A stretch of DNA of 64,000 nt from an uncultured bacterium (GTDB lineage Bacteria > Acidobacteriota > Thermoanaerobaculia > Multivoradales > JAHZIX01), in NCBI GenBank assembly GCA_965368975.1, contig CBDUPA010000006.1, positions 192,001 to 256,000 of the forward strand. The letters run 5' to 3'. Positions within the stretch are counted from its first letter, which is position 1. Each line of letters opens with the position of its first letter. Positions 8,104-56,703 of the stretch are shown here, piece by piece. Made by a program: the position numbers and the translations under genes. The notes beneath the pieces are model-generated. The model had not been told where the DNA came from. It ran no database searches and saw only the letters and a list, made by a program, of their open reading frames with translations.

Positions 8104-8146
8104 CGCCCACCACGAGCGAGAGCCGCTCGGCGCGAGCGGTGCCGGC

Positions 8147-8395: not shown

Positions 8396-8448
8396 GCTCT
8401 CTCTCCGGTAATTCCAGGCTCCGATGATCTAGGTGAGGCTGCTCTGCC

Positions 8449-9381: not shown

Positions 9382-9419
9382 GGCACTGAATACGGTAGCG
9401 CTCGAAGAAAGGACAGTCA

Positions 9420-26162: not shown

Positions 26163-26182
26163 GGTTCTTTCTCCTTGTCCGA

Positions 26183-27264: not shown

Positions 27265-28461
27265 TCAGAACTCCCGCCCCTGCCGCAGCCCCCGGCGCTC
27301 CGCAGCCCGCACCATCCGCCGCTTGTGGGCGCTCCAGCCGTAGCCGGCGAACAGCCCCAAGACGCCGACGCAGAAGCCGACGAAGAGGGTAAAGGTAAAC
27401 CCGTCGACGCCTCCAGCCCCACTGCGGGTCACCGCACTGAGCCGCCGCCGTGCGCGCTCCTCGGCTGACGGGCCATCTTGCAGTTCTTCGCGGATCGTCC
27501 GTTCGCTGTCGTCACGGCGGTCGACGAAGGTGCGGTCTGGACGATCGAGACCGCCGTTGTTCCAGGCGGAAATGGGGAGCTTCTCCTGCAAAGCGGGGTC
27601 GTCGGCGCGAATCACCTTGACTGGACGCAGGCCGCGTTCGGGCCAGGGGTTGAAGCCGAGGGAGCCGCAGTCGACCCAGGCTTGACCGCAGCCGTCGGGA
27701 TTGCCGGTGCCGTCGACATGCAGCAAACGCGTATTGCTGGGACCTGGGATCCATGCGGATCCGTCCGGCGGCTGGAAAGACGCGAGGTCACCGGGAAAGC
27801 GGGTGACGGCGTTGCTCAGGTGGCCCTCCATGTCGCCAGGAGTCGAACTGAGCCAGGAGACGAACCAGGCTTCGTAGCCGAGACCTTGCAGCAGGGTCGT
27901 CAGCAGGACGGCGGCATCGTCGCAGTCGCCTTGTTCGTCGACCAGGAATTCGATGCCGAACTTGGGGTACTCGGTCCAGCCGGTGGTGGTGTCGAAACTG
28001 TAGTTGATGCCCTGCACCAGGCCGTGGACGAAGGCGACGCGCGAGGCTTGGGAGGTGACGCCGGCGGCCTCGAAGTGACGGGCGAGGGCGACGGTGAGCG
28101 GGCGCAGGTCGCTGGCAGTGACGTCGAGAACGCGGCGGATGGAGTCGTGGGGATCGTTGCGGCGCAGGCTGTAGGCGTCGACGCCGACGGCGAGCTCGGC
28201 CCAGGCGAGTTCGCGCTCGGTGCACGGAACGCGGTCGGTGGGGCAGAAGGGCCAGGCGCGGTAGATGCGGCCGGAGTCGGGTGCGGGCAAGTCGTTGCCA
28301 TGCGAGCGACCGTCGTCATGCAGTCGTACCCAGGGTAGAGCGTCCGCGGCGAGCAGTGGCTCGGTGACGCTCGGCAGGACGAGGTTCGCACCTAGGAGAA
28401 AGCAGGCGAGCGGCAGGGGATGGGTGCGCGGCCCGTGGCGAGTGACATGGCTGTGCGGCAT
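27265..28461 (-). CDS. Membrane-anchored transglutaminase-like (Cys-His-Asp) protein
   Basis: Signal-like N-terminus, FVHGLVQGINY, EFLVDEQGDCDDAAVL, GHL, HVDGT; C-terminal TM plus Arg-rich tail. Confidence 0.75.
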   Translation of the reverse strand: MPHSHVTRHGPRTHPLPLACFLLGANLVLPSVTEPLLAADALPWVRLHDDGRSHGNDLPAPDSGRIYRAWPFCPTDRVPCTERELAWAELAVGVDAYSLRRNDPHDSIRRVLDVTASDLRPLTVALARHFEAAGVTSQASRVAFVHGLVQGINYSFDTTTGWTEYPKFGIEFLVDEQGDCDDAAVLLTTLLQGLGYEAWFVSWLSSTPGDMEGHLSNAVTRFPGDLASFQPPDGSAWIPGPSNTRLLHVDGTGNPDGCGQAWVDCGSLGFNPWPERGLRPVKVIRADDPALQEKLPISAWNNGGLDRPDRTFVDRRDDSERTIREELQDGPSAEERARRRLSAVTRSGAGGVDGFTFTLFVGFCVGVLGLFAGYGWSAHKRRMVRAAERRGLRQGREF

Positions 28462-29618
28462 CAGAACTTCCTTCGTGCACGCTCGGCGCGCCGTGTCTGC
28501 TGGCGTGCCAGGCGTTGCTGTCGAGTGCGCCAGCTGCTCCAGCCGAGCAGGCCGAGCAACGCCAGGAGCACGGCCGAGATGACGTAGAGGGTGCCGTCTT
28601 CCTGCTGGCCTGGCAGGCACTCGAGGCCGAGGGCGCGCGCCTGGGCGCAGATGTCGGGCTGGGTGGAGGTGGGGCCGGCTTCGGTGTCGGTATCGGTGTC
28701 ACGGGACGGCCGTGGGGTGGTCGGCGTCCGCGGATCGGTTGGGGTCGTGGATGGCAGACTGCCGCCGGGTTGCCAACCGTCGGCGAGCATTTCGTCCCAG
28801 GTCCAGGTGGTGATCGGTTCCTCGAGCTCGCCGGGCCAGACGGCGCGCACCAGCGGGACCAGGTAGCCGCCGTCGACGTTGCGCGTCCAGTCGGCGCCGC
28901 TGCTTCCGCTGCTGCCGCCGGCATCTTCGCGCGACAGCCAGACGCCGAAGACTTCCGGTGTCGGTGCGTCTGAAGTCGTGGTCGAGCCGGTGCCGCCGGC
29001 TGGGTAGCGTGCCAGGTGGACGGGGATGCCCAGGGTCTGTAGGGCCTGCACAGCAGTGAAGGCGGTGGACAGGGTGTCCGCGTGGACGGCGTCGGCGAGC
29101 ACTTCCCAGCCTTGCCACAGCCGGGAGTAGCGGCTCGGGGGGCCGGCGCGGTGGGCCGCGACGGGGCGCAGCGTGGCGACCAGGCACGTAGCGGTGAACA
29201 GAGGGTCGTCCTCGGCTAGCAAGCCGCGCTGGCGTAGCGCCGCGACGAGCACGCGCAAGTGCGGTTCGTTGGCCGCGGCGACCTGGGCCGGCGTCTGTTC
29301 ACGGCCAGCCTGATCGAGCCAGGCGTCCGGGCCGTGCACCACCATCAGGTAGGGATCCTGCTTGGGTGGCAGGGTGCGCACCCACTGCCGGTGCCAGCGG
29401 CCCTTCTGGTCGAAATTACGGTTCTGGACGACGCCCGGTAGCAAGTCGATGGTCAGGTCTTGGGCGAAGGCGGGGAAGGCGACGAAGAGCATCGCCATCA
29501 AATGGAGAAGGATCCCCTTCTGTGTAGGGGCGGCCCCATGTGGCCGCCCTGCGGCGCAGCCGCATCCGGATCCAGAGGGCGGCCACATGGGGCCGCCCCT
29601 ACAACGGAGGGCGGACAT
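28461..29618 (-). CDS. Membrane-anchored secreted protein, probably a degenerate transglutaminase-like paralog
   Basis: Signal peptide ending AFA-Q; EVLADAVHADTLSTAF..ALQTLG aligns by eye to the neighbour's catalytic segment; Pro/Thr linker; C-terminal TM plus Arg-rich tail. Confidence 0.6.
   Translation of the reverse strand: MSALRCRGGPMWPPSGSGCGCAAGRPHGAAPTQKGILLHLMAMLFVAFPAFAQDLTIDLLPGVVQNRNFDQKGRWHRQWVRTLPPKQDPYLMVVHGPDAWLDQAGREQTPAQVAAANEPHLRVLVAALRQRGLLAEDDPLFTATCLVATLRPVAAHRAGPPSRYSRLWQGWEVLADAVHADTLSTAFTAVQALQTLGIPVHLARYPAGGTGSTTTSDAPTPEVFGVWLSREDAGGSSGSSGADWTRNVDGGYLVPLVRAVWPGELEEPITTWTWDEMLADGWQPGGSLPSTTPTDPRTPTTPRPSRDTDTDTEAGPTSTQPDICAQARALGLECLPGQQEDGTLYVISAVLLALLGLLGWSSWRTRQQRLARQQTRRAERARRKF
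29523..29603. repeat. GTAG-family REP doublet (REPIN-like), 28-bp perfect inverted arms
   Basis: tgtaggggcggccccatgtggccgccct (29523-29550) and its exact reverse complement (29576-29603), separated by a 25-bp spacer. Confidence 0.85.
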
Positions 29619-29627
29619 CACCACCCT

Positions 29628-32600
29628 CTAACCCAGCGGCGGCGGTTCGTCGTCCAGCAGGGCGACGATTTCCGCGACCTCTTCGGCGTGGTGCCATTGG
29701 TCGCCGAAGCTGCGGGTCCACACCTTGTGCTCGCTTGCCGGTGCGGCCTGGATGCGCGCGGCGACGTCGGCGGCGCTCAACTTGCCGCGACGTTCGCCGT
29801 CGCAGGCGTAGTGGTACAGCGTACCGGCGGTCAGCGGTGGTGGCTCGTCCTCGGCGCGTAGCGGCGGGGGGGCGTCGCTGTCGGCCACCGGTTCCTGCTC
29901 GGCGCCCTGCTCGGCGTCCTGCTGCGCCGCGAAGGCGTCCCAGCGGATGGCCAGGCGCGGGAAACGGACCTCGGGGTTGCCCTGCGCATCGCGGCCGCGC
30001 GGCACGACGCCGGCGGTCTGCAGCTTGCCGATCTCGGTCTCGACGGCACCCTGCAGGGTCCATTCTTCCAGCCGGTGGGTGTCTGGCACCTTGGCGGTGG
30101 TGGCGACCAGTTGGCTGGTGTCGCGGTAGGTGGGTTCGGTCCAGCTGTGCAGATCCTCGAGCAGGGCTTTGACCGCCAGCGCTGCCTCGGGCCCCAGGCT
30201 GGCCTGGCTGGTGACCTGGCGCCGCCATTCGCCACGCAGGTGGTCGCACACCAGATTCTGCATCGAACCGACGGCGGTGCCTTCGTCGCGGCCCAGGCCA
30301 GGGGCGACTTGCACCGGGAAGATGCAGTAGTAGTAGTAATCCGCCAGGGCCACGAGGTGGGCCCAGCCGCCGCGTTCCGTCTGCAGCAGCCGCTTGAGCG
30401 CCGCCTCGACCTCGGTGCGCAGCTGCTGCACCAGCACCGTGTCGCTCATCAGGCGGTCGATCACGCGGCCTTCGGGGCCGAGGTCACGCCACTGCACTTC
30501 GAACGGGCCAACCCGTCGACGCCACTGGTAGACCATGCGCTGGTCGTCGTCGGGGCGCAGGCGCACGCTGCACACCAGGCCGAGCATCAGTGCCTGGATG
30601 AACAGGCGCCAGGCGACCTGGAAGGTGGGCAGCTGCTGCGTGCTGTAGGGCAGGATGGGCTGGAATTGGTGGTAGTCCTGGTGGATGTGCAGCGGTGTGT
30701 CGCGCGCCACCAGGGAGTCGTAGTGCTTGCGCAGCTCGGAGACCTCGCTCAGGTAGTAGACCGGGAAGGCGTTGAGTTCGCTGTAGAAGATCAGCTCGCA
30801 CGGCTCGTAGGCCTGCACACGGCGCGGCTCGAAGGGGGCGTCGGCATACTGCTGCAGGAAGTCGACCAGCTCCTGGACCACTTCTTCCTCGTGCGGCTGG
30901 CCGGTGGTGGTGCAGCCGATGAAGGCATCGCCGTGCGGTTGGTGCAGGTTGACCAACTCGTCGGCCTGGTTCTTGCTGCCCCAGGGCAGGCCCTTCTCGT
31001 ATAGCTGCTCGAACAGGTCGCGCCGCTTGGGACGATCGTAGTACTTGCCGAGCACGGCGCACAGTGAGTGCCGTTCGATGAAGCCGTCGACGGCGTCTTC
31101 CGGATCCTCGACGAAGGCGGCGGTGCGCCCCTTGTCGCCGCGCAGGGCGTAGAAGGCTTGCGCCGCCAGCTCGTCGCGGAAGTCTTCGAACTCGGCGTTC
31201 AACTTGTCGCCGATACGTTGCAGCGTGTCGAGGCCCATGCGCCGCAGCGCGCGGTCGAGCACCAGCTGCAGGCGTTCGATCTTGGTCTCTCGCGCGCGTC
31301 CGAGGTAGGGCTCGAGCAGGTCGCCCATCTCGCCCGGTACGTCGATCTCGACGATCACCGATGACTCTTGGGGCTGGGCGTAGAACTCGGCCAGCCGCTG
31401 GTACTCGGACTCGAGCAGGAACATGCGCTCGGCGATGCGTTCGAGGTTGCCGAGCTGGTCGCGCAGGACGTCGCGGATGCCGTCGACGGCGCGCTTGCCC
31501 TCGCCGCAGATCAGTTCGTTGGCCTCGGCGCGCCAGTAGTCGTAGAAGGCTTCCGAGGCGCGCTGCACGGCGGCCTCGTGGGTGTCGACCGCGGAACCGA
31601 AGCCGCGCGAGGCGCGGTCGGCGTTCTTCAACCGCTTGTGCCAGTTCTGCAGCTCGATGTCGGCGCGTCCGCGCAACTTTTCCTGCTGCTGCTTGAAGTA
31701 GTCGCCGTAGAAGGCCTGGTCGGCGGGACGGTCGAGCAACTCGAGCAGGTCGCGCAGGATGGCCATGACACCTGAGATGCCGACCGCCGGACGGCGGCGG
31801 AAGTCCTCGATCACCTTGGGCAGCGCCGTGTGCACCTCGTCGATCAGTTCCTTGCGATTCTGCCGGATGCGGCGCACCCAGTCGCCCTCACTGCCCGGGG
31901 AGTTGGGGTCGCCCCACAGGCTGGCGACGCGCTTGAAGACGTCCTCGCCCAGCTCGACGGTGGCCTTGTCGGTGTACATGTTCTCGGCCAGGCCGTTGAT
32001 CTCTTCCTGGAAGCGGCGCAAGTGCTGGTAGACGTCGCTGACGTGGCCGCCGGCACCGCTCTGGCGCGCCAGACGGTCGCGGATCTGCCAGTGACGGCGA
32101 CGACCGGCGTCGGTCTCGCGGTCGCCCTGGAAGAAGCCGGATTCGAAGCAGAAGCGGTCGCGGTGGTGGGTGATCACGTCCTTGAGACCGCCGACGCGGC
32201 CCGGGTCCATCAGCCCCACCATCAGCCCCGCCAGGTCGTACTTGCAGCGGTTGAGCAGACGCCAGGACGGGAACACCAGCTTGCTCAGGCCGACGGTGGC
32301 AAAGGCGTTGCGCCACTCGTCGGTGTGCGTTTCCTGGGTGCTGCCGTCGGAGCGCTGCAGGCGGTAGGTGTAGGTGACGGCGCTGCGCAGGTATTGCTCG
32401 CGGTTGACGCGCACGCCCTGCACCCAGCCGGCCATCGGCCCGGCGCCAAAGTCGAGGAAGAGGATCTCCCCCAGCGTGCGGTAGCAGTCGTTGAGGTCGC
32501 CCAGGTACTGGCCGGAGGCGTTGGTGCCCGAAATCAGCACGTAGCGGTCGTACAGGCCGCGGACCTCCTGCGCCACCTCGTTGGGTTGCCAGCGGGCGAG

Positions 32601-33398
32601 GAAGGGGTGTGTCAGGTAGTGGTTCAGCTCCAGCAACGCGGCGCAGCCGTTGGCCGCCAGCTTGGGGTAGCTCTGCCCCTGTTCGACGTTCTTGAAGCCG
32701 CCGGGCAAGACCAGGAAGCCTTCGATCTTGGGCTTGGACGTCGAGCCGAGGGTGCGCCGCACCAGTGCCGCGACGTCGAGCACCATGCCCGAGCCGGTAC
32801 CGCCGGCCAGGCCCGCGACGATCACCACGCGCACCGGCGACGAGGTGTCGAGGCGGCCGGAGTCCAGGCGGTTGGAGGTCACCTTGCGGTGGGCGCGGTC
32901 GAGGCCACTGGCGATCAACTCGTGGTTGGTGAAGAAGGCGAGGCGCGACAGCGGCCGGATCTGGCCGGCGCCGGCTTCGATCTGGAAATCCTCGCTCGGC
33001 AGAGCGCGCTCGTCCCACCACTCACGGATCTGCGGATGGTGGATGAGGTTGGGGCCGACGTAGTTCTTGAACTCGATCTTGACGTCGACGCGTTCGTCTT
33101 TGTCGAAACTGAGCGCGCGGTCCAGCGGGCTGCGCCGCTCTTCTTCGGCCGAGACTTCTTTGGAACGCACGTCGGTGTCGATGGACAAGAAGGCGGTGCC
33201 GTCGAGCGCATCGACCGCGCCGTAGCGCTCCAGCAGCATGCGCCGCAGGTGCAGCAGGGCCTTGGCACCGGTGCCGCCGAGGCCGACGAAGATGGTGCGC
33301 GGGTAGATGCCCTTGTCTCGCTTCCGGGCCTCTTCTTCGAGCTTGCGGGAGTAGTCGTCGTCAACGAATTCACCGACGACTTGATACGGATTGGCCAC
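29628..33398 (-). CDS. Tubulin/FtsZ-like (Tubulin_2-type) large protein with helical region and C-terminal GYF-like (DUF4339) domain
   Basis: AGGAGG RBS; IFVGLGGTG, FLSIDTD, GAGQIRPLSRLAF, AGLAGGTGSG, AANGCAALLEL; C-terminal YHY..DGERRG..S......VW..SFGDQW..AEEV.EI. Confidence 0.85.
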   Translation of the reverse strand: MANPYQVVGEFVDDDYSRKLEEEARKRDKGIYPRTIFVGLGGTGAKALLHLRRMLLERYGAVDALDGTAFLSIDTDVRSKEVSAEEERRSPLDRALSFDKDERVDVKIEFKNYVGPNLIHHPQIREWWDERALPSEDFQIEAGAGQIRPLSRLAFFTNHELIASGLDRAHRKVTSNRLDSGRLDTSSPVRVVIVAGLAGGTGSGMVLDVAALVRRTLGSTSKPKIEGFLVLPGGFKNVEQGQSYPKLAANGCAALLELNHYLTHPFLARWQPNEVAQEVRGLYDRYVLISGTNASGQYLGDLNDCYRTLGEILFLDFGAGPMAGWVQGVRVNREQYLRSAVTYTYRLQRSDGSTQETHTDEWRNAFATVGLSKLVFPSWRLLNRCKYDLAGLMVGLMDPGRVGGLKDVITHHRDRFCFESGFFQGDRETDAGRRRHWQIRDRLARQSGAGGHVSDVYQHLRRFQEEINGLAENMYTDKATVELGEDVFKRVASLWGDPNSPGSEGDWVRRIRQNRKELIDEVHTALPKVIEDFRRRPAVGISGVMAILRDLLELLDRPADQAFYGDYFKQQQEKLRGRADIELQNWHKRLKNADRASRGFGSAVDTHEAAVQRASEAFYDYWRAEANELICGEGKRAVDGIRDVLRDQLGNLERIAERMFLLESEYQRLAEFYAQPQESSVIVEIDVPGEMGDLLEPYLGRARETKIERLQLVLDRALRRMGLDTLQRIGDKLNAEFEDFRDELAAQAFYALRGDKGRTAAFVEDPEDAVDGFIERHSLCAVLGKYYDRPKRRDLFEQLYEKGLPWGSKNQADELVNLHQPHGDAFIGCTTTGQPHEEEVVQELVDFLQQYADAPFEPRRVQAYEPCELIFYSELNAFPVYYLSEVSELRKHYDSLVARDTPLHIHQDYHQFQPILPYSTQQLPTFQVAWRLFIQALMLGLVCSVRLRPDDDQRMVYQWRRRVGPFEVQWRDLGPEGRVIDRLMSDTVLVQQLRTEVEAALKRLLQTERGGWAHLVALADYYYYCIFPVQVAPGLGRDEGTAVGSMQNLVCDHLRGEWRRQVTSQASLGPEAALAVKALLEDLHSWTEPTYRDTSQLVATTAKVPDTHRLEEWTLQGAVETEIGKLQTAGVVPRGRDAQGNPEVRFPRLAIRWDAFAAQQDAEQGAEQEPVADSDAPPPLRAEDEPPPLTAGTLYHYACDGERRGKLSAADVAARIQAAPASEHKVWTRSFGDQWHHAEEVAEIVALLDDEPPPLG

Positions 33399-33426
33399 GG
33401 TGTGGACCTCCTTGTGCGTTCAGGCT

Positions 33427-34008
33427 TCAGCTATCCCGGACGATGGCCAGAGTGTAGATCAGATGGATCAGCCAGGCGCCGCCGAGTACCGCCAACCCTA
33501 CCCAATACGAAGAATGCCAGCAGTCGGTCAACCAATGGGCCAGGCCGGCGGTGCCGAGGGCGGTGAGCACGACGGTCAGCGAGATGCCGAGGTGGCGACC
33601 GAGCATCGAGTTGCGGTCCTGGGCGATGAAGCGGCGCTCGAACACGCGCACCAGCAGGAAGAAGAGGAGCACGAGCAGGGTCAGGAAACCGACGCCGATC
33701 ATCACCTTCTCCTGCGTCGACGGCGGGCAGCACTCGCCGGCCGGGCAGATGCTGCTGCCGATCAGCTCGGCCAGGGACTCTTCCTCACCGCTGCCGGGTG
33801 GGGTGATGTCTTCCGTGGTCACGTCTTCACTGGTCAAGTCTTCACTGGTGACCGTGGTCGGTGGTGGTGCCGGCTCCGGCCCGGTGGCGGGTTCCTGGGC
33901 CGAGAGGGGACTGATCGTCAGCAAGAGGCTGATCGTCAGCAAGAGGCTGGTCATCAGCAAGAGGGGGAGCAGGCCGGAGACGTGGGTTCGCGAGTGCGCT
34001 GAGATCAT
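33427..34008 (-). CDS. Small membrane protein (signal peptide, acidic Pro/Thr linker, Cys motif, 3 TM)
   Basis: AGGAAAGG RBS; ICPAGECCPP followed by three hydrophobic helices. Confidence 0.7.
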   Translation of the reverse strand: MISAHSRTHVSGLLPLLLMTSLLLTISLLLTISPLSAQEPATGPEPAPPPTTVTSEDLTSEDVTTEDITPPGSGEEESLAELIGSSICPAGECCPPSTQEKVMIGVGFLTLLVLLFFLLVRVFERRFIAQDRNSMLGRHLGISLTVVLTALGTAGLAHWLTDCWHSSYWVGLAVLGGAWLIHLIYTLAIVRDS

Positions 34009-34031
34009 GGGCTAACCTTTCCTAACATGGA

Positions 34032-38097: not shown

Positions 38098-39806
38098 GAG
38101 ACCGTCTCCAGCTGCAAGCGGTAGCAGTGCACGCTCATCCCCTGGCCCAGGAAGACGTCGCGGCCGAGCAGGGCCAGGCCTTGGGGGGCTTCGTAGGCGC
38201 CGGGGACACGAATTCGTGACGGCGTGCCGAGATCGGCCCAGCCCAGGCCCTGGGCGCCCAGGCGCAGGCCATCCTGGAAGCGGGCCAGGACACCCGCCGA
38301 GCACACCAGCGGTGCTTCGCGCGCGCCCTGCAACCGTTGCTCCGGACCGCGCAACGGTTGGAGCACCGAGGCGGCGCTGCTGTAGCGCGGGAAGATCGCC
38401 ACCATGCGGTCGGTCGACACCGCCAGCAGATGGCCACCGATGTTCTGCTGGTGGCGCGAGCCGTGGCCGATGGCGAAACCCATCAGGTCGCCGAGTTCGC
38501 CCAGGTCCCGCCGTTCCCAGCTCCACGGCTCGCCGCGCACGATGTCCGCCAGCGTCGCACGCAGCATCTCGACCCGACCGCCGGTCTCACTCGAGACCCA
38601 CACTTCCGGCCGCTCGCGCGGGTCCGGCACCACCTGCAGGGTCGGCAGGCTCGAGGGCTCGAGGTCGAGCGGCGACTCGGGCGTGTAGCGGGTCGGCACC
38701 AGCTCGCGCGGCTCACTGTTTGGCTGCAGCAGTCCGTCTGGCTGCAGCAGTCCGTCTGGCTGCAGCAGTCCGTCTAGCTGCAGCAGTGACGTCAGTACCT
38801 CGCGCTCCAGCATCGACACGGTACCGCGACCGTCGACCCACAGTAGCCGACCGGTGGCGGCGTCGAAGGTGGGCGGGCGCATGACGCCGGGCGCCGGGCA
38901 GCGTGCCAGCAGGGTGCCGGCGGGGTTGAATAGCAGAATCTCTCCGTCCGCGAAGGCCTGTCGTTCCAGGTCCGGGCGGCCCTGCAGCAGTGCGAACAGC
39001 ACGCCGTCCGCGCTTCCAGCTGGCTGCAGATCCAGCCCCAGCGGGGGTCCCAGAAACTGGCAGCCGGTATCCGGCGGGTGCGCGCGGGTAGGATGTTCGC
39101 TCGCCATGCCGCGGAAGTAGAGGTAGGGCGCGAGGTCGCGGAATACCGCCTGGTGCGCGGCGGCGACCAGCATGCGCGAGCCGCGAAGGACCGGCGGGTG
39201 CAGCACGGCGTGGGCGGGGTCGGTAGGGTCAGTGGAGCGGTCCGGCCACTCCAGGGGGCGCTGTAGCCGTGGCGTGCCGTCCTGGGCGTCGAAGATGCCG
39301 AGCCAGCCGCGCGCGGTGGTGGCGACCACCTGGCCGCGCACCACGTTGACGCCCACCACGTGATCCTCGGAGGTTCCGACGTCGTCGCCGGCTGCCAGCA
39401 GGCTGCGCTGCCAGCCCTCGCGCAGCACGAAGCGTTGATCGGCGCGCGGCGGGCCAAAGATGTTGCCCAGCGGATCGCGCGGGCTGTGCGCACGCCCGGC
39501 ACTGCCGCCGGCCTCGTTCCAATCGAGCAATGAATCGCCGCGCAGGGCGCTGCCGGTGCGAGTCGAGAAGGCACTCCAGGGACGTCGATAGACCTCGGCG
39601 GCCGCGGTGCTCTCCGGCGCTGGCTGGTCGTTCTGCTGCTGAACGGCCTCGTAAGGCCGCGCACAGGCGTCGCACCAACCCAGGGCCGGCAGGAAATGCA
39701 GCGGCTGCACGGGTTGTGCGCAGTCCGGGTAAGGGCAGCGCTCCGGCGGTCGGAAGCGCCGGTTGTCGGGGTCCCACTCGGGGCCGCTGAGGTGTGGACT
39801 CTTCAT
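38094..39806 (-). CDS. Zn-finger (CPxxxC...CxxC) plus probable beta-propeller protein
   Basis: ATGA overlap; CPYPDC..CDAC; blade-like segments (GQVVATTARGWLGIFDAQDG, GRLLWVDGRG). Confidence 0.55.
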   Translation of the reverse strand: MKSPHLSGPEWDPDNRRFRPPERCPYPDCAQPVQPLHFLPALGWCDACARPYEAVQQQNDQPAPESTAAAEVYRRPWSAFSTRTGSALRGDSLLDWNEAGGSAGRAHSPRDPLGNIFGPPRADQRFVLREGWQRSLLAAGDDVGTSEDHVVGVNVVRGQVVATTARGWLGIFDAQDGTPRLQRPLEWPDRSTDPTDPAHAVLHPPVLRGSRMLVAAAHQAVFRDLAPYLYFRGMASEHPTRAHPPDTGCQFLGPPLGLDLQPAGSADGVLFALLQGRPDLERQAFADGEILLFNPAGTLLARCPAPGVMRPPTFDAATGRLLWVDGRGTVSMLEREVLTSLLQLDGLLQPDGLLQPDGLLQPNSEPRELVPTRYTPESPLDLEPSSLPTLQVVPDPRERPEVWVSSETGGRVEMLRATLADIVRGEPWSWERRDLGELGDLMGFAIGHGSRHQQNIGGHLLAVSTDRMVAIFPRYSSAASVLQPLRGPEQRLQGAREAPLVCSAGVLARFQDGLRLGAQGLGWADLGTPSRIRVPGAYEAPQGLALLGRDVFLGQGMSVHCYRLQLETVS

Positions 39807-40597
39807 CGGCCGACGATCACCTGCGCGCGTTGGGGTTCTTGGTCGGCACGGGCATAGCGACGTCCGACCACCTTGAGGGCGACGACCAGACCGGCCGCTC
39901 CGCCGATATCCCGGCCGCCGAGGGCGTGGTGGCGGTCGGGGTCGAAACGGGTCTCGAACGGCACGACCGGATCCAAGCGGTACCAGCCCTGGCGCTGGCA
40001 CAGCTGGCCGAAGTCGTCGTAGAGCCATCCTCGCAGCCGCTTCACCAGGTCGTCGCCGTGGCCCTCGTGGGCTTGCTGCGCCGCGACGGAAAGGTGGCGC
40101 GCCAGCTGGTTGAGCAGTTCCGGCAGGTCACTGTCCGCCCACGCCGCGAGTCGATCAGCTTCGATCGCCTCCACCAGGCGCTGCAGGCGCGTCAGCATCG
40201 GCGCGCCAAAGTCCTGGTGGAGGCGACGTCGCGCTTCGTCGTCGGCGCACAGTGTTGCCAGCTCGGGTGCTTGCTGGTGTAGTCGCAGCAGCAGCAGGCC
40301 GATCTCGCCCTGCGGTAGGCGTTCCAGATCGTGACGAATGGCCTCGTAGTCGACGCCGCTCTGCGTCTCGGCCGCGGGTTCGGTGGGTTTGGTGCCAGGG
40401 TGGCTGCCGGGATGGTTGTCGGTGGACTGGTTGCCGTTGCCGTCGAGAGAAGCGCTGGTCCTGTCGTCGCGCAGGGCTTGCAGGAGCTGGCGGTCTTCCT
40501 CCTGCCGGCGTTCCAGCCGCCGCAGCCTCCAGCCGAGGAGGCCATAGAGGGCGAGCGCCAGGACGGCGAGCAGGGCGGCGAGCAGGGAGGGCATCAT
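39803..40597 (-). CDS. Membrane-anchored GrpE-like nucleotide exchange factor
   Basis: N-terminal TM and short coiled coil; C-terminal TRFDPDRHHA..G.VV....VG.....RAQVIV resembles the GrpE head; ATGA overlap with the Hsp70-like gene. Confidence 0.65.
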   Translation of the reverse strand: MMPSLLAALLAVLALALYGLLGWRLRRLERRQEEDRQLLQALRDDRTSASLDGNGNQSTDNHPGSHPGTKPTEPAAETQSGVDYEAIRHDLERLPQGEIGLLLLRLHQQAPELATLCADDEARRRLHQDFGAPMLTRLQRLVEAIEADRLAAWADSDLPELLNQLARHLSVAAQQAHEGHGDDLVKRLRGWLYDDFGQLCQRQGWYRLDPVVPFETRFDPDRHHALGGRDIGGAAGLVVALKVVGRRYARADQEPQRAQVIVGR

Positions 40598-43500
40598 GAC
40601 AGCGGCACTCCTTTGGATTCCTTGCCATCGGCGACGATCCACAGATCGGCCGGGCCGCGCACCTGGATCACCAGGTCGCTGGCTGGCTCGAACTGGAAGC
40701 GCACGTAGGGTTGATGGTCGCGGTACAGCTCCAGGCGGTCGATCTTCGCTGGCTCTTGCAGGTGCACCTCCGCTGGTAGCTCGGTGTTGCGCTCCAGTCC
40801 GGGGACGGTGCGGAAGCGACGGCGGCCGGCCTTGCGTTGCAGGTCGAAGTTGAGGCGCTGGTGCAGCGTGTTGCGCAGGTGCAGCCAGCGGCCTTCTTCG
40901 CGGCTCAGCTGCCACAGCGCTGCCCCGATGGCGACGCAGTGTTTGGGGTCGAAGGGGACGTCCAGGCTGGCCTTGCCCGAGCTGGCTCTATCCGAAGTCG
41001 GGGGTTCGACCAGGATCAACGGCGTGTCCGCTGGTCGACGCTGGGCGACGGCTTCTTTGACGCCCTGGCGGATCACCGGCACGCGCACGCCCTGGCCGGT
41101 GAACAGCAGGGTGGTGACCTCGGACCACTGCCAGCCGGCGCGCTCGACGACGCTGTCGAGCAGTGGCAGGACCGCTGCCAGTCGTGTGCTGACCAGGTCC
41201 TCGAACGTGGCGCGGTCGATGGTGGTGGTAAAGTCCGGCTCGGCTGCTGGGCTGGCGTTGCTGGAGATACTGGTGTTGCTGGAGATACTGGTGTTGCTCG
41301 AAACATTGGCCAGGAGAGACGGGCCGAGCTCCAGCGTCAAGCTCGCTTGCTGTGCCTCGGAGAGCCGCTTCTTGGCCACCTCGGCGGCTCGCAGCAAGCC
41401 GCTGGCACCGCTGTAAAGGTCGATCGCCAGATCTTCCAGCTGTTCGTCGCGCCAGCCGGACCACGGTTCCTGGTAGCGCGCGCGCTGCCGGAAGCCGCTC
41501 TGGAACTCGCTGAACAGTCGAGCTTGCAGAGCGTAACGAATCTCGTCGAGCAGCTGTAGAAGCTCGGCCGGGTGGCTCCCGTCGTTCTCACCGCGCACCT
41601 GTGCCAGCAGCCACTCGGCGAGCAGCACGTCGAGGTCGTCGCCGCCCAACCGCCGGCCAGCATTGCTCTTCAACTCGACGGTCACCGGCACGTCCTCGCC
41701 GACATCGTTCGGATCGGTGCCGGCGTAGCGGTCGAGGTCGTGCACTTCGACCGCCGCCAGGTCCGTGGTGCCGCCGCCCATGTCGAAGCACAGCACGCGT
41801 TCGATCGGCAGGAACGGCTCCCCGGCCGCCACCTGGCGCCGCTCACGGGCGTCGACGTAGGCCAGCACCGCGGCGCTGGCTTCGTCGACGCAGCGCTCGG
41901 CGAAGAAGGCGTCGACCTGCACCTGATCGAGGTTGACGCCGACGCTGTGCGCCGTTTCCATGAGCGCCCGGCGCATCGGCTCTGTGACCTCCACCGGGTG
42001 GCTGAACACGGCCTTCTGGAACACCACCCGCTCCCCCTGCAGGCGCAGGTCGCGCTGGGCGTCGGGGTCGAGGAGGGTGACGCCGCGCTCGGCGCGGCCG
42101 AGCAGTTCGCCGATGAAGATATCGAGCAGCTGCTGAGCGCTGTAGCGGGCGCGCTGAAAGCCGTCACCGTGCCGGTAAAGGAAATTGTAGGCGGTCGCCG
42201 GATCGCGCGCGATCACCGTCTTGATGCTGCGCACCAGATTGGCGGGGTCGATACCGGCGGAGTGGTGCGCTTGTTGACCGAAGAGGAAGCGGTTCTGCGC
42301 GCCGTCGTGAGGACTCTCGGCATCCGCCAGAAAGTACATCAGCGACGCCAGCGACGGCCGCCGCTGCTCCAGTTCCAAGAGCAGGGGATAGGCGCGCTCG
42401 TCGCCCAGAATGCACACCACTGAGCTGGAGGTGCCGAAGTCGATGCCGGCGGCGAAGTGATCGGCGACACGGCCGAACTCGACGCTGATGTCCAGCGCCA
42501 GCCCGGTTTCCAGGCTCCGCCCGGTGTCGTTCTCGGCTGTAGGCGTCCACCCATCGTGCTCCAAAATCAGCCGCCGCTGTCCCCATTCTTCGCCAGCCAA
42601 GTGTCGCGGCCGGAGTTCGGGGTGGACCCGTAGTTCGAGCGTTCGTTCTTCACCGGCCTCCAGCAGGTCGCCCAGTTCGACGCCGCGGATGCTCAGCCAA
42701 TCGGGCGACCAGTCCGGATCGGGCACCGGCCGCCAGTCGCCGTCGTGCGGCTGCAGCACATGCAGATCTCCCAAGCGCAGCGGTACCTGGCCGGCATTGC
42801 GCACCGTGAGGGTGTGCTCCTCACGCAGTCGCGAGAACGGAATGGTCAGCTCGGGCGGACCGTGGGTCACCAGCCGAGGTGCGCGCACGACACTGCCGCG
42901 CAGCCGGCAGTCGAGGAGCAGCTCTTCGCCCTGATGACGGCAGCGCAGCTCGATACGGCCATCGAACCAGATGGGTTCGTCCGAGCCGGTACTGGCCGAG
43001 CCGATGCTGGACGAGCCGATGCTGGCCGAGCCGGTACCGCCCGCCTCGAGGTTGCGCAGCAGCTCCACGTCTTCCTCGCCGCGCAGGTCGATGTGCAGGG
43101 TCAACTCGTCGTTCGCGTCCACCGGCAGGGGCAGGTCCAGAGGTTGCGCATGTAGCAGGCGGGTCGCGTCGAGACGCTGGTGGCCGGCGGGTGTCTCTTC
43201 ACCCGCGTCGCGTACCCGGATCTCTAGCAATTCGAGCGCGTCGGCGGATTCGTTGCGCAGCACCAGCGTCTGCCGCACGCCCTGCGCGCGCACCAGCTCG
43301 ACGGGCAGGAAGCGGTAGAGCGCACCCCCCGGCAGCAGGCGCGGCTGGCGCACGAGCAGCAGGTCGAGCTCGAGGTTCTGCTGAAAGCTGTCGTGCAGCG
43401 TGATCGTGGCGACCAGTTCCTGACCCGCCTCGGCGTCACGGTCGTAGGCTTGTTGCAGGCGGAAACTGTCGATCGGCAGGTCGAGTCGCTGGGGTTCCCC

Positions 43501-43830
43501 TCCGGGTGCCAGCTGCAGCACGCGCTCGGTCAGTTCGTCGCGCAGGACCCAGGCTGGCAGGGTGCGGATGGTGTCGTCGGTCAGGACCAGCGCGGCGGCG
43601 GTGACGCCCTCGTTGATCAGCTGGACTTGCACGTGGCGGGCGTTGCGCTGCACCGCCACGCGTCCGCTGGTCTCTTGCCAGCTGCCCAAGCGCTGGTTGC
43701 CGCCCGCGTCGGTGCCGGCGGCGCGCCAGCGAACGCGCGTCAACGGCCGACCGCACACCGCGCAGTAGGCGTCGGCCGGGCTGACCGCGTTGGCGCAGCG
43801 CGGACAGGTCGGGCGGTCCGGCGTCGTCAC
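40594..43830 (-). CDS. Hsp70-family ATPase with N-terminal zinc ribbon and Ig-like domains
   Basis: CPRC..CAVC; Ig-like segments (QLINEG, LRNES, VRNAG); GIDFGTSSS, DEASAAVLAY, FDMGGGTTD, LGGDDLD, AEVAKKRLS, DPKHCVAIGAA. Confidence 0.85.
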   Translation of the reverse strand: MTTPDRPTCPRCANAVSPADAYCAVCGRPLTRVRWRAAGTDAGGNQRLGSWQETSGRVAVQRNARHVQVQLINEGVTAAALVLTDDTIRTLPAWVLRDELTERVLQLAPGGEPQRLDLPIDSFRLQQAYDRDAEAGQELVATITLHDSFQQNLELDLLLVRQPRLLPGGALYRFLPVELVRAQGVRQTLVLRNESADALELLEIRVRDAGEETPAGHQRLDATRLLHAQPLDLPLPVDANDELTLHIDLRGEEDVELLRNLEAGGTGSASIGSSSIGSASTGSDEPIWFDGRIELRCRHQGEELLLDCRLRGSVVRAPRLVTHGPPELTIPFSRLREEHTLTVRNAGQVPLRLGDLHVLQPHDGDWRPVPDPDWSPDWLSIRGVELGDLLEAGEERTLELRVHPELRPRHLAGEEWGQRRLILEHDGWTPTAENDTGRSLETGLALDISVEFGRVADHFAAGIDFGTSSSVVCILGDERAYPLLLELEQRRPSLASLMYFLADAESPHDGAQNRFLFGQQAHHSAGIDPANLVRSIKTVIARDPATAYNFLYRHGDGFQRARYSAQQLLDIFIGELLGRAERGVTLLDPDAQRDLRLQGERVVFQKAVFSHPVEVTEPMRRALMETAHSVGVNLDQVQVDAFFAERCVDEASAAVLAYVDARERRQVAAGEPFLPIERVLCFDMGGGTTDLAAVEVHDLDRYAGTDPNDVGEDVPVTVELKSNAGRRLGGDDLDVLLAEWLLAQVRGENDGSHPAELLQLLDEIRYALQARLFSEFQSGFRQRARYQEPWSGWRDEQLEDLAIDLYSGASGLLRAAEVAKKRLSEAQQASLTLELGPSLLANVSSNTSISSNTSISSNASPAAEPDFTTTIDRATFEDLVSTRLAAVLPLLDSVVERAGWQWSEVTTLLFTGQGVRVPVIRQGVKEAVAQRRPADTPLILVEPPTSDRASSGKASLDVPFDPKHCVAIGAALWQLSREEGRWLHLRNTLHQRLNFDLQRKAGRRRFRTVPGLERNTELPAEVHLQEPAKIDRLELYRDHQPYVRFQFEPASDLVIQVRGPADLWIVADGKESKGVPLS

Positions 43831-45341
43831 GCGCCTCTCTCCGAGGGGGACTGTGGTTTCGTTCGAGCTTGTGCGTCTGGCGGAGCTTCCCCGTGCAGTG
43901 GAGCTTCCCCGTGCAGCGGAGCTTCAATATCGACGCGCACCAAGTCGCCGTGACGCAGGGCGGGCGAGAGCACGCGATAGCGTCGGCCGTGCGCATCGAG
44001 TGGACGCAGCTGGCCTCCCACCGCGACGCCGTTGACCACCAGCTGCAGGCGCTCCGGCGGCACGCCCTCGTCGAGCACCAGGATGTCCGGCCGGAAGTCG
44101 TCGAGCGGCGTAAACGGAGGAGCTTCGGGCAGATCCTGCAGAGGAGGAGTGCTCGTCGCGGGCTCGTCGTGGCTGGCGGACTGGGGTGAGGGCTGGGGCG
44201 CCGGCGTCGGGGGTACCTGCGTCGGGGGTACCTGCCTCGGAGTCAGGGCTTGTGGCGGGGGCGGTGGTAGTGGTGCGGACGTAGGGGCTGCGTTCTGGGG
44301 CGTCGGGTCGGCGTGCACCGCCGTGGCCAGGTGACGCTTCAAGCTGTTGACGATTTCGCGCTGCGGCCGTTCCTGCAGCCAGTCGCCGTAGCGCTGCGTC
44401 AGGTCCGTGTGCAGTTCCAGGTGCTCGGGGTCCAGCTGCCGGGCGGACAAGCCCTGGCCGTCGAGAAAGCGTCGCAAGTCGTCGAGGGCGTCGGAAGGCC
44501 GGCCACCCTCGCGCAGCAACACCGTCGGCCCCTCACTCCAGCGTACTTCCTGCACCGGCACACCCTGCGAGTCGACGAGTAGCTGCGGCTTGGCGAGACG
44601 TTGCCACCAGGACGGCGGGTCGATCTCGGGCAGCAGGCGCACGCGCACGCGCGTCGCTCGGAGGCGGTGCAGCGACGGATCACTCGAAAGGAAGACATCA
44701 CAGCCGTGCAGCTGCAAGTCCGTCGTACCCGTCGCCTGTGCCGCCAGTCCGTAGGCGATGCGCTGTTGCCACGCCCAGGTTTCCGCTCGTGGCGGCTCGA
44801 CGTTTGCAGGCAGCTCGTCGAGCCAGGCCTGGAGGATCGCTGGTGTCACGCTCCAAGCGCGCGCCAGCGCGGTGGACGCCGGCACCACCAGCGACCGGAA
44901 GGGCTCGATGATGCGCAACCAGCCTCCCGCTTCGACGACGATGCGCGTATCGACCGCATCGTGAGACGCGTCGACCACCGCCTGGCGCAGGATTGGCTCG
45001 GCCGGCACCACCGTCCAGCCCGCTTCGTCCCAGGCTCCGAGCAGCTGCCGTCCGCGCGCCGCATCACGCCAGGCTTCGGGGACCAGCAACAGGTCCGGTC
45101 CGCCGCGCCGCGCCGTCGCCAGGCGCGCGAACTCCGCGCTCATCTGCCGCCAGGCCGCTGCCTCGGTGCTGGACGCCGGCTCGCTGTCCACACTTGACTC
45201 GACCGTGATTTCGACCCCCATCGCCGGGTCCGGCAGGCCGCAGGCGAGGTCCGCATCCAGGGCGGCGAAGAGGTCAAGGTGCGACGGCTCGACGGTGCCC
45301 GCGAGGGACCCGCAGCCGAGCACCAATGGTCTAGGTTTCAC
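43827..45341 (-). CDS. Probable degenerate Hsp70/actin-like fold protein with Pro-rich linker
   Basis: LVLGCGS, LLLVPEAW..R.......AG....EP, IVVEAGG and VLLREGG echo the Hsp70 motif order; first gene of the operon. Confidence 0.45.
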   Translation of the reverse strand: MKPRPLVLGCGSLAGTVEPSHLDLFAALDADLACGLPDPAMGVEITVESSVDSEPASSTEAAAWRQMSAEFARLATARRGGPDLLLVPEAWRDAARGRQLLGAWDEAGWTVVPAEPILRQAVVDASHDAVDTRIVVEAGGWLRIIEPFRSLVVPASTALARAWSVTPAILQAWLDELPANVEPPRAETWAWQQRIAYGLAAQATGTTDLQLHGCDVFLSSDPSLHRLRATRVRVRLLPEIDPPSWWQRLAKPQLLVDSQGVPVQEVRWSEGPTVLLREGGRPSDALDDLRRFLDGQGLSARQLDPEHLELHTDLTQRYGDWLQERPQREIVNSLKRHLATAVHADPTPQNAAPTSAPLPPPPPQALTPRQVPPTQVPPTPAPQPSPQSASHDEPATSTPPLQDLPEAPPFTPLDDFRPDILVLDEGVPPERLQLVVNGVAVGGQLRPLDAHGRRYRVLSPALRHGDLVRVDIEAPLHGEAPLHGEAPPDAQARTKPQSPSERGA

Positions 45342-45456: not shown

Positions 45457-46680
45457 ATGGCTCCCTCTTCACAGGAGACGTTACAGCGCAGCGCAATGTT
45501 CCACACTCGCTATACGCAAGCGGGAGGAGAGGAACGCTCCACCGCCGTCGAGACCGCGACACTACGGGCGCACGGGATCGAGGTCGAGGAGTTCCAGCTC
45601 GCCAACCAGGACGTGCTGAATGCCGGCCGCCTCGCCACCGTGCGCGGTCTCTGGCGTTCGGCCTTCAACCGCCAGGTCTACGAGCAGGTACGGCAATTCT
45701 GCCGGCGGGTTCGGCCGCAGGTGGCGCACGTGCAGAACTTCTGGTGGGCGATGTCACCAGCTGTCCATGCTGCCTGCCACGCCGAAGGTGTCGCCACCGT
45801 GCAGACACTGCGCAACTATCGCCTGCTGTGCGTCAACGCGCTCCTGCAGCGCGAAGGCGCCCCGTGCGAGGCGTGCGTCGGCAAGGCGCCATGGCGCGGC
45901 GTGCTGCACCGCTGCTACCACGGATCGGCCGTGGGCAGTGCCCTGGTGGCGCGCATGATCACGCACAACCGCAGGCGTGCCACCTGGCACCGCGATGTCG
46001 ACGTCCTGGTCGCCTTGACGAACTTTGCCCGTGGCAAGTTGATCGAGGGCGGCTTGCCGGCCGAGCGCCTGGTCGTCAAACCCAACTCGGCCCCCGATCC
46101 CGGCGCGGCGACGCCGCCGGGCCAGGGTGCTGTGTTCCTGGGGCGGTTGTCGGCGGAGAAGGGCCTGCACACCCTGCTCGACGCCTGGCGTTGCCTACCG
46201 GAGGTGCCGTTGACGATTCTCGGCGACGGTCCCTTGCGGGCCGAACTGGAAGCGCGCGTCGCCGAGCCGGAGTTACGGCACGTGCGGTTGCTCGGCCAGC
46301 AGCCGGCCGACCAGGTCACGGCGGCGGTGCGGGAGAGTGCCTTCCTGGTGATGGCCAGCGAGTGGTATGAGGGTTTTCCCCGCGTGCTGGTGGAGGCCTT
46401 CTCCCTCGGGCGCCCGGCGTTGGTGCCGAAACTTGGTTCGATGGCCGAGATTGTCGACGATGGCCGCACCGGTCTGCACTTCGAGCCGGGCGATGCCGTC
46501 AGCCTGGCGGCGCAGGCATGTCTCTTGGCCGAAGATCGCGATCGACTCCTGCAGCTGGCCACAGCGGCTCGCGCCGAGTACGAGGCTTGCTACACGCCGG
46601 ATCGCGACGCCGAGCGCCTGCTGGGGATCTATCGCCAAGCTCTCGATCAGCAGGCGATCAATACGCACCGCGCCCGCTGA
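45457..46680 (+). CDS. Glycosyltransferase family 4
   Basis: GGEE, HVQN, TLRNYRLLC, FLGRLSAEKG, SEWYEGFP.VLVEAF. Confidence 0.88.
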   Translation: MAPSSQETLQRSAMFHTRYTQAGGEERSTAVETATLRAHGIEVEEFQLANQDVLNAGRLATVRGLWRSAFNRQVYEQVRQFCRRVRPQVAHVQNFWWAMSPAVHAACHAEGVATVQTLRNYRLLCVNALLQREGAPCEACVGKAPWRGVLHRCYHGSAVGSALVARMITHNRRRATWHRDVDVLVALTNFARGKLIEGGLPAERLVVKPNSAPDPGAATPPGQGAVFLGRLSAEKGLHTLLDAWRCLPEVPLTILGDGPLRAELEARVAEPELRHVRLLGQQPADQVTAAVRESAFLVMASEWYEGFPRVLVEAFSLGRPALVPKLGSMAEIVDDGRTGLHFEPGDAVSLAAQACLLAEDRDRLLQLATAARAEYEACYTPDRDAERLLGIYRQALDQQAINTHRAR

Positions 46681-54319: not shown

Positions 54320-54413
54320 GACGGACCTCCTTGCCTCATTAGACACGACTGGAGCATCCGAGGAAACCGCCCCGTTCCGTCATGAGCCTATTGCTTGGTC
54401 GAGAACAGCCTTG

Positions 54414-56543: not shown

Positions 56544-56703
56544 GAAGGAGTCTCCTCTCGGAAGGTTTCAGCTCTGCATGGAGTGTATAACAAGCAGGTG
56601 CGGTCCGGGATCGAACTGCAAAAGTATAACCCGGCGGGCTAGAATCCGTTTGTCTAAAGGACGGCTCTTGCCCACGCCCCTGATAACCGACAGGAGATCC
56701 AAC

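Follow-up and report, generated by a model that had tools for sequence, protein, structure and literature searches.

The closest described relatives of the system reported here come from two bodies of work. The first defined the FtsZl1 family and its operons, whose other genes encode vWA proteins, OmpA proteins, kinases and P-loop GTPases, and proposed a role in membrane remodelling (Makarova and Koonin 2010, PMC2875224). The second describes predicted conflict systems of the DO-GTPase/GAP1-N2 type, in which three variable themes, called non-overlapping by the authors, are found: a tubulin with two vWA proteins; an Hsp70 with GrpE and a second Hsp70 consisting only of the nucleotide-binding domain (NBD); and a kinase/PP2C/vWA theme. 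GYF and trypsin modules, as GYF-trypsin genes, are placed there in planctomycete versions (Kaur et al. 2020, PMC7159879). Here we describe a ten-gene operon (g1-g10), rare in its occurrence, from an uncultured soil member of the Acidobacteriota, lying in a stretch of 64,000 nucleotides that was analysed as a whole (contig CBDUPA010000006.1 of assembly GCA_965368975.1, positions 192,001 to 256,000; hereafter the window). We posit that these genes form a single operon for a membrane-spanning, nucleotide-gated multiprotein system of the FtsZl1-vWA/tubulin-Hsp70 'conflict system' kind, working without a DO-GTPase, a reading that to us is evenly poised between right and wrong.

The ten genes are minus-strand open reading frames arranged head to tail between 27265 and 45341, and these boundaries hold. 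From g1 to g10, with starts refined by orthologue alignments and by the sequence itself, the junctions measure -4, -4, -4, -4, -11, +23, +28, +9 and -1 nt, so that all nine, at -11 to +28 nt, are either overlaps of 1-11 nt or gaps of no more than 28 nt, much as the initial annotation of this DNA had described them (co-oriented genes with overlapping or near-adjacent junctions). A gap of 197 nt follows g10, and the gene upstream of the operon, for a glycosyltransferase, runs in the opposite direction; given the nine junction distances, this gap and the opposed neighbour, we treat the ten genes as one compact unit. The G+C content of the window is 62-71%. The start of g5 was corrected to a GTG at 38097, within a GTGA overlap with the stop of g4, that of g9 is more probably 29618 than 29498, and that of g1 at 45341 is backed by orthologue N-termini. 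A scan for promoters and terminators was uninformative, with no promoter-like sites and terminator-like sites no more frequent than in shuffled sequence. A search of sequencing runs listed none of RNA, and two DNA runs from soil metagenomes with small word shares (0.11-0.12). The genes at 25317-27067 were considered as further members and rejected on the 197-nt gap and the lack of a homologue in the other loci, a weak basis given that most of those loci end earlier.

Is this arrangement a peculiarity of one genome? Absence of the gene set from all other genomes had been named beforehand as a ground for abandoning the idea, and since the set is conserved elsewhere that ground falls away. Searches with the ten proteins (tblastn) recovered g1-g8 in the same order in a Holophagales metagenome-assembled genome (MAG; locus L012), in an Acidobacteriota MAG (L014) and on a 474-kb metagenome contig (L016). 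Shorter contigs carry parts of the set: L013 (Thermoanaerobaculia) has g3-g8, L011/L002 g5-g8 and L017 g2-g4. Identities between orthologues extend from 26% (g1) up to 63% (g8), the flanking genes differ between loci, and all source names seen are Acidobacteriota, Thermoanaerobaculia or Holophagales. A full-length g8, 60% identical, is present in one other genome (G020) among 41 relatives. The second vWA-TM (transmembrane) copy, g5, occurs only in the window, L013 and L011/L002; L012 and L014 have a single vWA-TM gene and differ in what lies downstream, with a DUF1598 gene and an NMT1/OmpA-like protein (weak OmpA match, E = 0.0036) after g8 in L012, and nothing recognisable in L014. In L016, g9 and g10 do follow g8, at 35% and 50% identity; found only there and in the window, the two were rejected as members of the conserved core. 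The same contig holds g3 in three tandem copies (6545-9978) and, between g8 and g9, an extra gene for a protein of ~400 aa (~18300-19524) with no counterpart in the window by tblastn. The g4 orthologue of L012 (5686-7342) is spread over two reading frames, through a frameshift or an assembly error.

Table 1. Genes of the operon, in window coordinates and in order from g1 to g10; functions are predictions.
Gene	Position	Strand	Length	Predicted location and features
g1	43827..45341	-	504 aa	predicted cytoplasmic; ASKHA-like fold (lead)
g2	40594..43830	-	1078 aa	predicted cytoplasmic; zinc ribbon + Ig-like region + Hsp70 NBD
g3	39803..40597	-	264 aa	N-terminal membrane anchor + predicted cytoplasmic GrpE-like domain
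g4	38094..39806	-	570 aa	predicted cytoplasmic; zinc ribbon + probable beta-propeller
g5	36097..38097	-	666 aa	lipoprotein signal, extracytoplasmic vWA, TM
g6	34032..36107	-	691 aa	signal peptide, extracytoplasmic vWA, TM
g7	33427..34008	-	193 aa	small integral membrane protein
g8	29628..33398	-	1256 aa	predicted cytoplasmic; FtsZl1/Tubulin_2 + GYF
g9	28461..29618	-	~385 aa (start 29618 or 29498)	predicted inactive paralogue of g10
g10	27265..28461	-	398 aa	predicted transglutaminase-fold LapG/BTLCP-type cysteine protease, C-terminal TM

Beyond the orthologous loci, a sister architecture is found in four related genomes (G001, G003, G025 and G039). Its order runs from an Ig-like + Hsp70 protein (~985 aa; HSP70 E = 3e-39) through a TM-GrpE-like protein, a double-zinc-ribbon + propeller-like protein, a member of the operon's own vWA-TM family and a small protein to a Tubulin_2 protein, which bears C-terminal zinc ribbons instead of GYF. 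These g8 homologues are 27-31% identical to g8 by search and 23% identical over the whole alignment. Directly downstream of the sister tubulin gene stands a membrane-anchored trypsin-like protease (L018, L020, L021 and L023), a call made on four translated loci and on a Pfam scan of the L020 copy only. Because the sister architecture swaps both the tubulin adaptor and the extracytoplasmic protease, we regard the core as old and modular and these two parts as exchangeable; a core that stays constant while its terminal protease varies follows the pattern of an effector. The g1 profile found no match in eight neighbourhoods, sister loci included, and g1 co-varies with GYF, both being present in those window-type loci that reach the genes concerned. 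In G001, a Ser/Thr kinase of 863 aa with TPR repeats is encoded directly upstream of the sister-type system (L018, 14305-16896, minus strand), reminiscent of the reported link between FtsZl1 operons and kinases.

The domain content that the initial annotation had read into these genes largely stands: tubulin-like with GYF for g8, zinc ribbon with Hsp70 for g2, TM-GrpE-like for g3, a vWA lipoprotein and a vWA-TM protein for g5 and g6, and an active and an inactive transglutaminase-like protein for g10 and g9. The assignment is clear for g8, a Tubulin_2 protein (Pfam E = 4.8e-58) with its GTPase domain at residues 36-391, where the GTP-binding loops GLGGTG and AGGTGSG (AGGTGxG) are invariant across 10 homologues. 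A long conserved middle and C-terminal region follows, and then a GYF domain flanked by PPPL motifs; GYF_2 is sub-threshold in the window copy (E = 0.023), but four of ten aligned homologues match it (best E = 1.6e-7), and some orthologues have two copies. A search with the family profile returned no sequence relatives of g8 in the PDB at E ≤ 0.3. The NBD of g2 is similarly clear (Pfam HSP70 E = 1.6e-13; NCBIfam DnaK E = 4.6e-16), its best PDB match being the DnaK NBD 1dkg_D from the DnaK-GrpE complex (E = 4.4e-15), and the conserved motifs GIDFGTTNS, DMGGGTTD, FTGQGxRVP and VAIGAA leave phosphate-1, phosphate-2 and adenosine motifs intact. In front of it lie an N-terminal zinc ribbon, weakly matched by Pfam (Zn_Ribbon_1, E = 0.012), and a region of ~400 residues for which there are only HYDIN/ASH-type Ig-like leads (Atlas 0.82-0.86, and PF22544 at E = 8.2e-7 in a sister-system homologue), so that the Ig domain originally claimed for g2 stays a lead. 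A short beta region forms the C-terminus, and neither a substrate-binding domain nor a lid was matched, the best Pfam and NCBIfam stretches covering the NBD only. Next to it, g3 has a TM segment at residues 4-22 and a C-terminal domain whose profile (8 orthologues) matches GrpE 4ani_A at E = 3.5e-4, the FDPxxHxAV motif included, with 1dkg_A at E = 4.4; the Pfam GrpE model picks up two of the eight orthologues (best E = 0.0035) and leaves the window copy unmatched.

Two further proteins of predicted cytoplasmic location, g1 and g4, are read with more reserve. The first divides into an ASKHA-like part (~1-345) with degenerate nucleotide motifs, a proline-rich linker (~345-415) and a small C-terminal beta domain. 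Its AF2 model (pLDDT 80.5) retrieved, with Foldseek, mostly actin/Hsp70-superfamily chains among ranks 1-50 (Kae1, actin, Hsp70 NBD, MreB and PPX), but no match at E ≤ 0.001; comparison of the g1 and g2 families with hhalign was not significant (probability 0.04% and 0.33%), and the g1 profile found nothing among PDB sequences. The label 'degenerate Hsp70-like' first given to g1 is therefore reasonable but weak: the ASKHA character of the structural neighbours speaks for it, and the missing match at E ≤ 0.001 and the missing profile link to g2 against it. For g4, described at first as a zinc-finger/propeller protein, it is the zinc-binding half of the description that stood, in the form of an N-terminal four-Cys ribbon (CPYPDC...WCxxC) whose cysteines are invariant in 9 sequences; a sister-system homologue matches DZR at E = 0.0012. 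The propeller half is weaker (PQQ_2 at E = 0.012; Atlas BamB/PQQ_2 at 0.84), and the g4 profile found only an insignificant zinc-ribbon match in the PDB. Elsewhere in the window, the plus-strand genes at 5639-6859 and 56380-58110 encode PQQ_2/BamB-type propellers (E = 1.6e-30 and 6.1e-36) that are far clearer than that of g4.

Predicted to face the other side of the membrane, g5 and g6 are paralogues with 27% identity in alignment. The lipobox of g5 reads VTGC; its extracytoplasmic part comprises the vWA domain and a beta-sandwich region, and beyond the TM segment (551-569) a beta-rich, predicted cytoplasmic tail ends in F. In g6 the metal ion-dependent adhesion site (MIDAS) is complete (D86, S88, S90, T201 and D229), and across 61 sequences the first four positions are conserved at ≥90% while D229 is invariant. 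An AlphaFold model built on 61 homologues (pLDDT 90, pTM 0.81) opens with an N-terminal helix, read as the signal, and goes on through an alpha/beta domain and then beta-rich domains to a long helix over the TM segment (574-592) and a beta-rich tail, the last corresponding to a predicted cytoplasmic beta domain of ~95 aa that ends in W. Foldseek relates this model to vWA chains (factor B, VWF A2 and 4fx5) with probabilities of 0.96-0.99, but at E-values of only 1.8e-3 to 1e-2. Comparison by hhalign of g6 residues 60-320 with 12 VWA_2 domains of the same genome gave probabilities of 90.7-93.3% (E = 1.2e-6 and 3.9e-8), against 0.1% for a reversed control and ≤0.3% for four unrelated families of the operon. 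Pfam (vWA models included), NCBIfam and PADLOC gave no match for either protein, and a PDB profile search gave none that was meaningful; the vWA call for g5 and g6 is thus one of profile-profile comparison and modelling, with direct sequence searches blank. In an alignment of 6 orthologues, g7 has a signal peptide and an acidic stretch that varies, followed by the conserved motif C-x-PPSTQE and, after it, three hydrophobic segments.

The last two genes supply the candidate output. The g10 profile (45 homologues) matches 4fgo_A at E = 1.2e-5 over the GDC[DE]D segment that contains the catalytic Cys, with only ~50 residues aligning significantly; this chain, deposited as 'Periplasmic protein', is Legionella LapG. 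Transglut_core is recognised in 18 of the 45 family members (best E = 1.8e-5), the window copy falling below the cut-off at E = 5.1e-4. Residues C180, H214 and D250 are invariant in the 45 sequences, D250 being the candidate catalytic Asp, and the protein has a signal peptide, a C-terminal TM segment and a basic, predicted cytoplasmic tail ending in F. Sequence comparison in this way confirms g10 as a putative extracytoplasmic cysteine protease of transglutaminase fold and LapG/BTLCP type, its activity being predicted. Its neighbour g9 aligns with it and shares its layout (signal peptide, C-terminal TM at 302-320 in the 345-aa form that starts at 29498, basic predicted cytoplasmic tail ending in F), having lost the catalytic Cys in the window; the L016 copy keeps the Cys and lacks the His. 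By the same comparison g9 is confirmed as a predicted inactive paralogue of g10. A further trait runs through the four single-pass proteins g5, g6, g9 and g10: each has an aromatic residue at its C-terminus, which is predicted to be cytoplasmic. The last residue is W or F in 52 of 61 members of the vWA-TM family and F or W in 39 of 45 of the g10 family, set against none of 32 in the g1 family and none of 8 in the g3 family. Could this terminus serve as a shared docking signal for g5, g6, g9 and g10? The pattern makes that possible.

How might these parts work together? The pairing put forward in the initial annotation, of a tubulin-like GTPase and an Hsp70/GrpE-like pair in the cytoplasm with vWA modules and a Cys-His-Asp enzyme outside it, is borne out in composition and predicted topology, as is its remark that no J-domain, kinase or TRAFAC GTPase is visible: a Walker A motif occurs in none of the ten proteins, and a Pfam scan of the ten at E ≤ 0.1 listed no J-domain/DnaJ, kinase (Pkinase) or OmpA family. 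In the mechanism that we propose, g5 and g6 would capture a ligand, a peptide or a protein, in the periplasm or at the envelope through their vWA ectodomains with MIDAS, and their TM helices and cytoplasmic beta domains would relay this event to g4 (zinc ribbon-propeller), g2 (zinc ribbon-Ig-Hsp70) and the tubulin-like g8. GTP-dependent assembly of g8 would build a membrane-proximal scaffold, with its GYF domain perhaps holding the proline-rich linker of g1, and the Hsp70-like ATPase g2, cycled by the membrane-anchored g3 together with the pseudo-ATPase g1, would set an assembly threshold or drive disassembly. The output would be extracytoplasmic proteolysis by the tethered, LapG-like g10 alongside inactive g9, and its trigger may be clustering of the TM proteins through their aromatic-ended cytoplasmic tails. 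As to its purpose, for which the initial annotation had offered sensing, defence or morphogenesis as possibilities, envelope surveillance or defence against an invader seems the most likely role, with surface-protein processing as the main rival. What speaks for conflict or defence is that the system is distributed sporadically, with flanks that differ from locus to locus, that its effector is exchangeable, that one paralogue is inactive and that copy numbers vary.

A more ambitious version, which we hold tentatively and judge unlikely to be right in full, would make this a new class of trans-envelope signalling or immunity machine. Here a tubulin-like polymer and a private Hsp70/GrpE cycle, without a P-loop GTPase switch, would gate an extracytoplasmic protease; single-pass vWA receptors, protease and pseudo-protease would dock by their shared C-terminal aromatic residue; the GYF domain of g8 would capture the linker of g1; and the core would be modular, zinc ribbons taking the place of GYF, and trypsin that of the BTLCP protease, among the sister systems. 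If true, a bacterial cytoskeletal GTPase and an Hsp70 cycle would be linked to transmembrane signalling.

Several observations weigh against the proposed trans-envelope conflict system. None of the ten proteins matches a family of PADLOC-DB 2.0.0 at E ≤ 0.1. The window flanks consist of housekeeping and envelope genes (Ddl, AsnB, glycosyltransferases, alpha-2-macroglobulin, QueG), with no mobile-element or known defence genes seen among them, so this is not an obvious defence island. With no protease gene recognised downstream of g8 in L012 or L014, the protease output is not universal. On the parts themselves, the GrpE homology of g3 is modest (E = 3.5e-4, with Pfam matches below threshold), the actin/Hsp70-like (ASKHA) fold of g1 is a predicted one and a lead, and the remainder of g4 is probably a beta-propeller, judging by its weak matches. 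The distribution counts for less than it seems: in an even sample of 401 genomes of the phylum, both g2 and the vWA-TM family were found in one genome only, the window's own, but with 2-3 candidates scored per genome such rarity figures are lower bounds on occurrence. Globally the vWA-TM family comprises 63 clusters, that of g10 48 and that of g1 42, the last being 42 representatives among 1.84 billion proteins. Literature searches found no experimental work on FtsZl1/Tubulin_2 proteins, and PMC2875224 could not identify the T6-H7 elements in FtsZl1.

Indeed, with no PADLOC match, no mobile or defence neighbours, and exopolysaccharide and envelope genes nearby, a role in LapG-like surface processing stays alive. 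The operon would then encode a housekeeping or developmental machine of the cell surface, in which inside-out control of the LapD/LapG sort acts on a periplasmic protease that trims or releases a vWA-held adhesin or matrix protein in biofilm formation, adhesion or membrane remodelling; this is possible, and in our estimate somewhat unlikely. The match of g10 to 4fgo_A (E = 1.2e-5), a LapG chain, is what one would expect of such a machine, and so are neighbours such as exopolysaccharide-type glycosyltransferases, a sugar transferase, alpha-2-macroglobulin and GldG-like DUF4350 proteins, with known defence and mobile genes missing from the vicinity and PADLOC blank. Yet these neighbours are not conserved in other loci, no LapA-like substrate or LapD-like receptor was seen, and the protease itself is exchanged for a trypsin in the sister system and goes unrecognised in L012 and L014. 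Two samplings of the phylum, of 401 genomes each, turned up the system in the genome of the window alone, which also speaks against this reading. Copy numbers that vary, and a paralogue that is inactive, are rather what one meets in conflict systems. Even so, membrane remodelling is what Makarova and Koonin suggested for FtsZl1-vWA operons (PMC2875224).

A second alternative would strip the operon of any signalling output and make it a dedicated biogenesis or quality-control chaperone, with g1-g3 serving the folding, insertion or export of the vWA proteins and the tubulin-like protein. Such a task would suit an Hsp70 made for the operon and an exchange factor anchored in the membrane, both translationally coupled and encoded directly upstream of the membrane proteins, and from its sequence the short region after the NBD of g2 may resemble the start of an Hsp70 substrate-binding domain. 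We nevertheless think it improbable: the Pfam scan of the ten proteins found no J-domain partner, the zinc ribbon and Ig-like modules of g2 are atypical of folding chaperones, and the conserved tubulin-like GTPase, the zinc ribbon-propeller protein and the swap of protease type would all be left unexplained. Lastly, that unrelated genes, or two independent systems (Hsp70/GrpE on one side, tubulin/vWA/protease on the other), were juxtaposed by chance might draw on the absence of g9 and g10 from two orthologous loci and on the tubulin and Hsp70/GrpE themes being called non-overlapping in PMC7159879, but it is highly improbable in the face of the overlapping stop and start codons, of a g1-g8 order kept across loci at 26-63% protein identity, and of an Hsp70, GrpE-like, propeller, vWA-TM, tubulin order that the sister architecture retains with g8 homologues at 23% identity over the whole alignment.

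Some features of the surroundings deserve a record of their own. Beyond the 197-nt gap, a gene for a 289-aa predicted secreted protein (25317-26186, minus strand) encodes ~20 tandem Cys-x-Gly-Ser-x repeats (CIGSACIGSGCTASACGGSGC...) with no Pfam match, and a 4-nt overlap joins its start to the stop of the upstream gene for another secreted protein (26183-27067, minus strand). Directly downstream of the Cys-repeat gene lie two large paralogues of 1193 and 912 aa with DUF4350/ABC_transp_aux/GIFT matches (19864-25295, minus strand), which are GldG-like. Two genes upstream of the operon, an alpha-2-macroglobulin of 2100 aa (48044-54346, minus strand; MG2, A2M and bMG10) adjoins a Bac_transf sugar transferase (46658-48028) and is not conserved beside the orthologous loci. 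Elsewhere in the same genome, a second Tubulin_2 paralogue lies at G000:C12:121307-124670 (within L022) with a VWA_2 match 2.3 kb upstream. This locus is a classical FtsZl1-vWA pair; hidden Markov models of the operon's Hsp70, GrpE-like and vWA-TM families found no match there.

To conclude, the operon can be set against the systems it most resembles, beginning with those that its single proteins recall. With LapG and BTLCP, g10 shares the GDC[DE]D segment, the invariant Cys and His, the signal peptide and a predicted periplasmic location; it differs in being tethered by a C-terminal TM segment with a cytoplasmic tail and in its pairing with an inactive paralogue, and the LapD- or LapA-like partner of a LapG system was not seen. 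With DnaK-GrpE the operon shares an NBD that has all the nucleotide-binding motifs, in g2, and a GrpE-like C-terminal motif, in g3. In contrast to that pair, no canonical substrate-binding domain or lid was matched, there is no J-protein, g2 carries zinc ribbon and Ig-like modules, and g3 is membrane-anchored and, in L016, triplicated. As to whole systems, literature searches found no characterised one of this composition, as the initial annotation had supposed, although the supplementary neighbourhoods of PMC2875224 and PMC7159879 may list GTPase-less tubulin/Hsp70 loci; where that supposition has to give way is in the module combinations that Kaur et al. had already predicted (PMC7159879).

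The likeness to FtsZl1-vWA operons (PMC2875224) lies in a long tubulin-like protein, FtsZ-like in its N-terminal GTPase domain and much extended at the C-terminus, in vWA proteins that keep their MIDAS, in several membrane proteins, in sporadic distribution and in predicted work at the membrane. The P-loop GTPase, Ser/Thr kinase and OmpA that are frequent, non-obligatory partners there are all missing from the operon of the window. Unlike their counterparts in that account, the vWA domains of the operon are predicted to be extracytoplasmic and go undetected by Pfam vWA models; added to the scheme are an Hsp70-like ATPase, a GrpE-like protein, an ASKHA-like protein, a zinc ribbon-propeller protein, a LapG-like protease pair and a GYF domain on the tubulin. 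What results is a compact and completely defined FtsZl1-type system with a clear predicted topology and an assayable Cys-protease output, and the sister system, with its swapped adaptor and protease, offers a natural comparison set.

The systems of Kaur et al. (PMC7159879) and the operon have these parts in common: a tubulin homologue with a C-terminal helical region; two vWA proteins, one of them extracellular; Hsp70 and GrpE with a second, NBD-only Hsp70-like protein, to which g1 would be equivalent on its weak fold matches; zinc ribbons at N-termini, components rich in TM segments and inactive paralogues of enzymes; and, in the planctomycete versions, GYF and trypsin modules. As for their FNIII-repeat protein, the Pfam scan of the ten proteins gave no FNIII family, and the N-terminal region of g2 gave only leads to Ig-like HYDIN/ASH domains. 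Among the differences, the terminal gene encodes an extracytoplasmic BTLCP-like protease, and the host belongs to the Acidobacteriota, outside the lineages named for these systems in section 29 of the paper. DO-GTPase and GAP1 are absent from the operon. In the window's genome, which is 99.3% complete, there is no match over the cut-off for DO-GTPase1 and none for GAP1-M/GAP1-N2 (PF20014, PF20013), and DO-GTPase2 (PF19993) passes the cut-off only on other contigs (G000:C46:6579-7148 and G000:C4:32599-33204; L039 and L040); it passes the cut-off in none of four other genomes with orthologous or sister systems (G430, G431, G001 and G039). Modules of the tubulin and Hsp70/GrpE kinds had so far been tied to DO-GTPases; here they co-occur without them, which bears on the identity of the thresholding NTPase in such systems. 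Joining the two themes that PMC7159879 keeps apart, the operon is a GTPase-less, merged variant of a predicted, uncharacterised kind.

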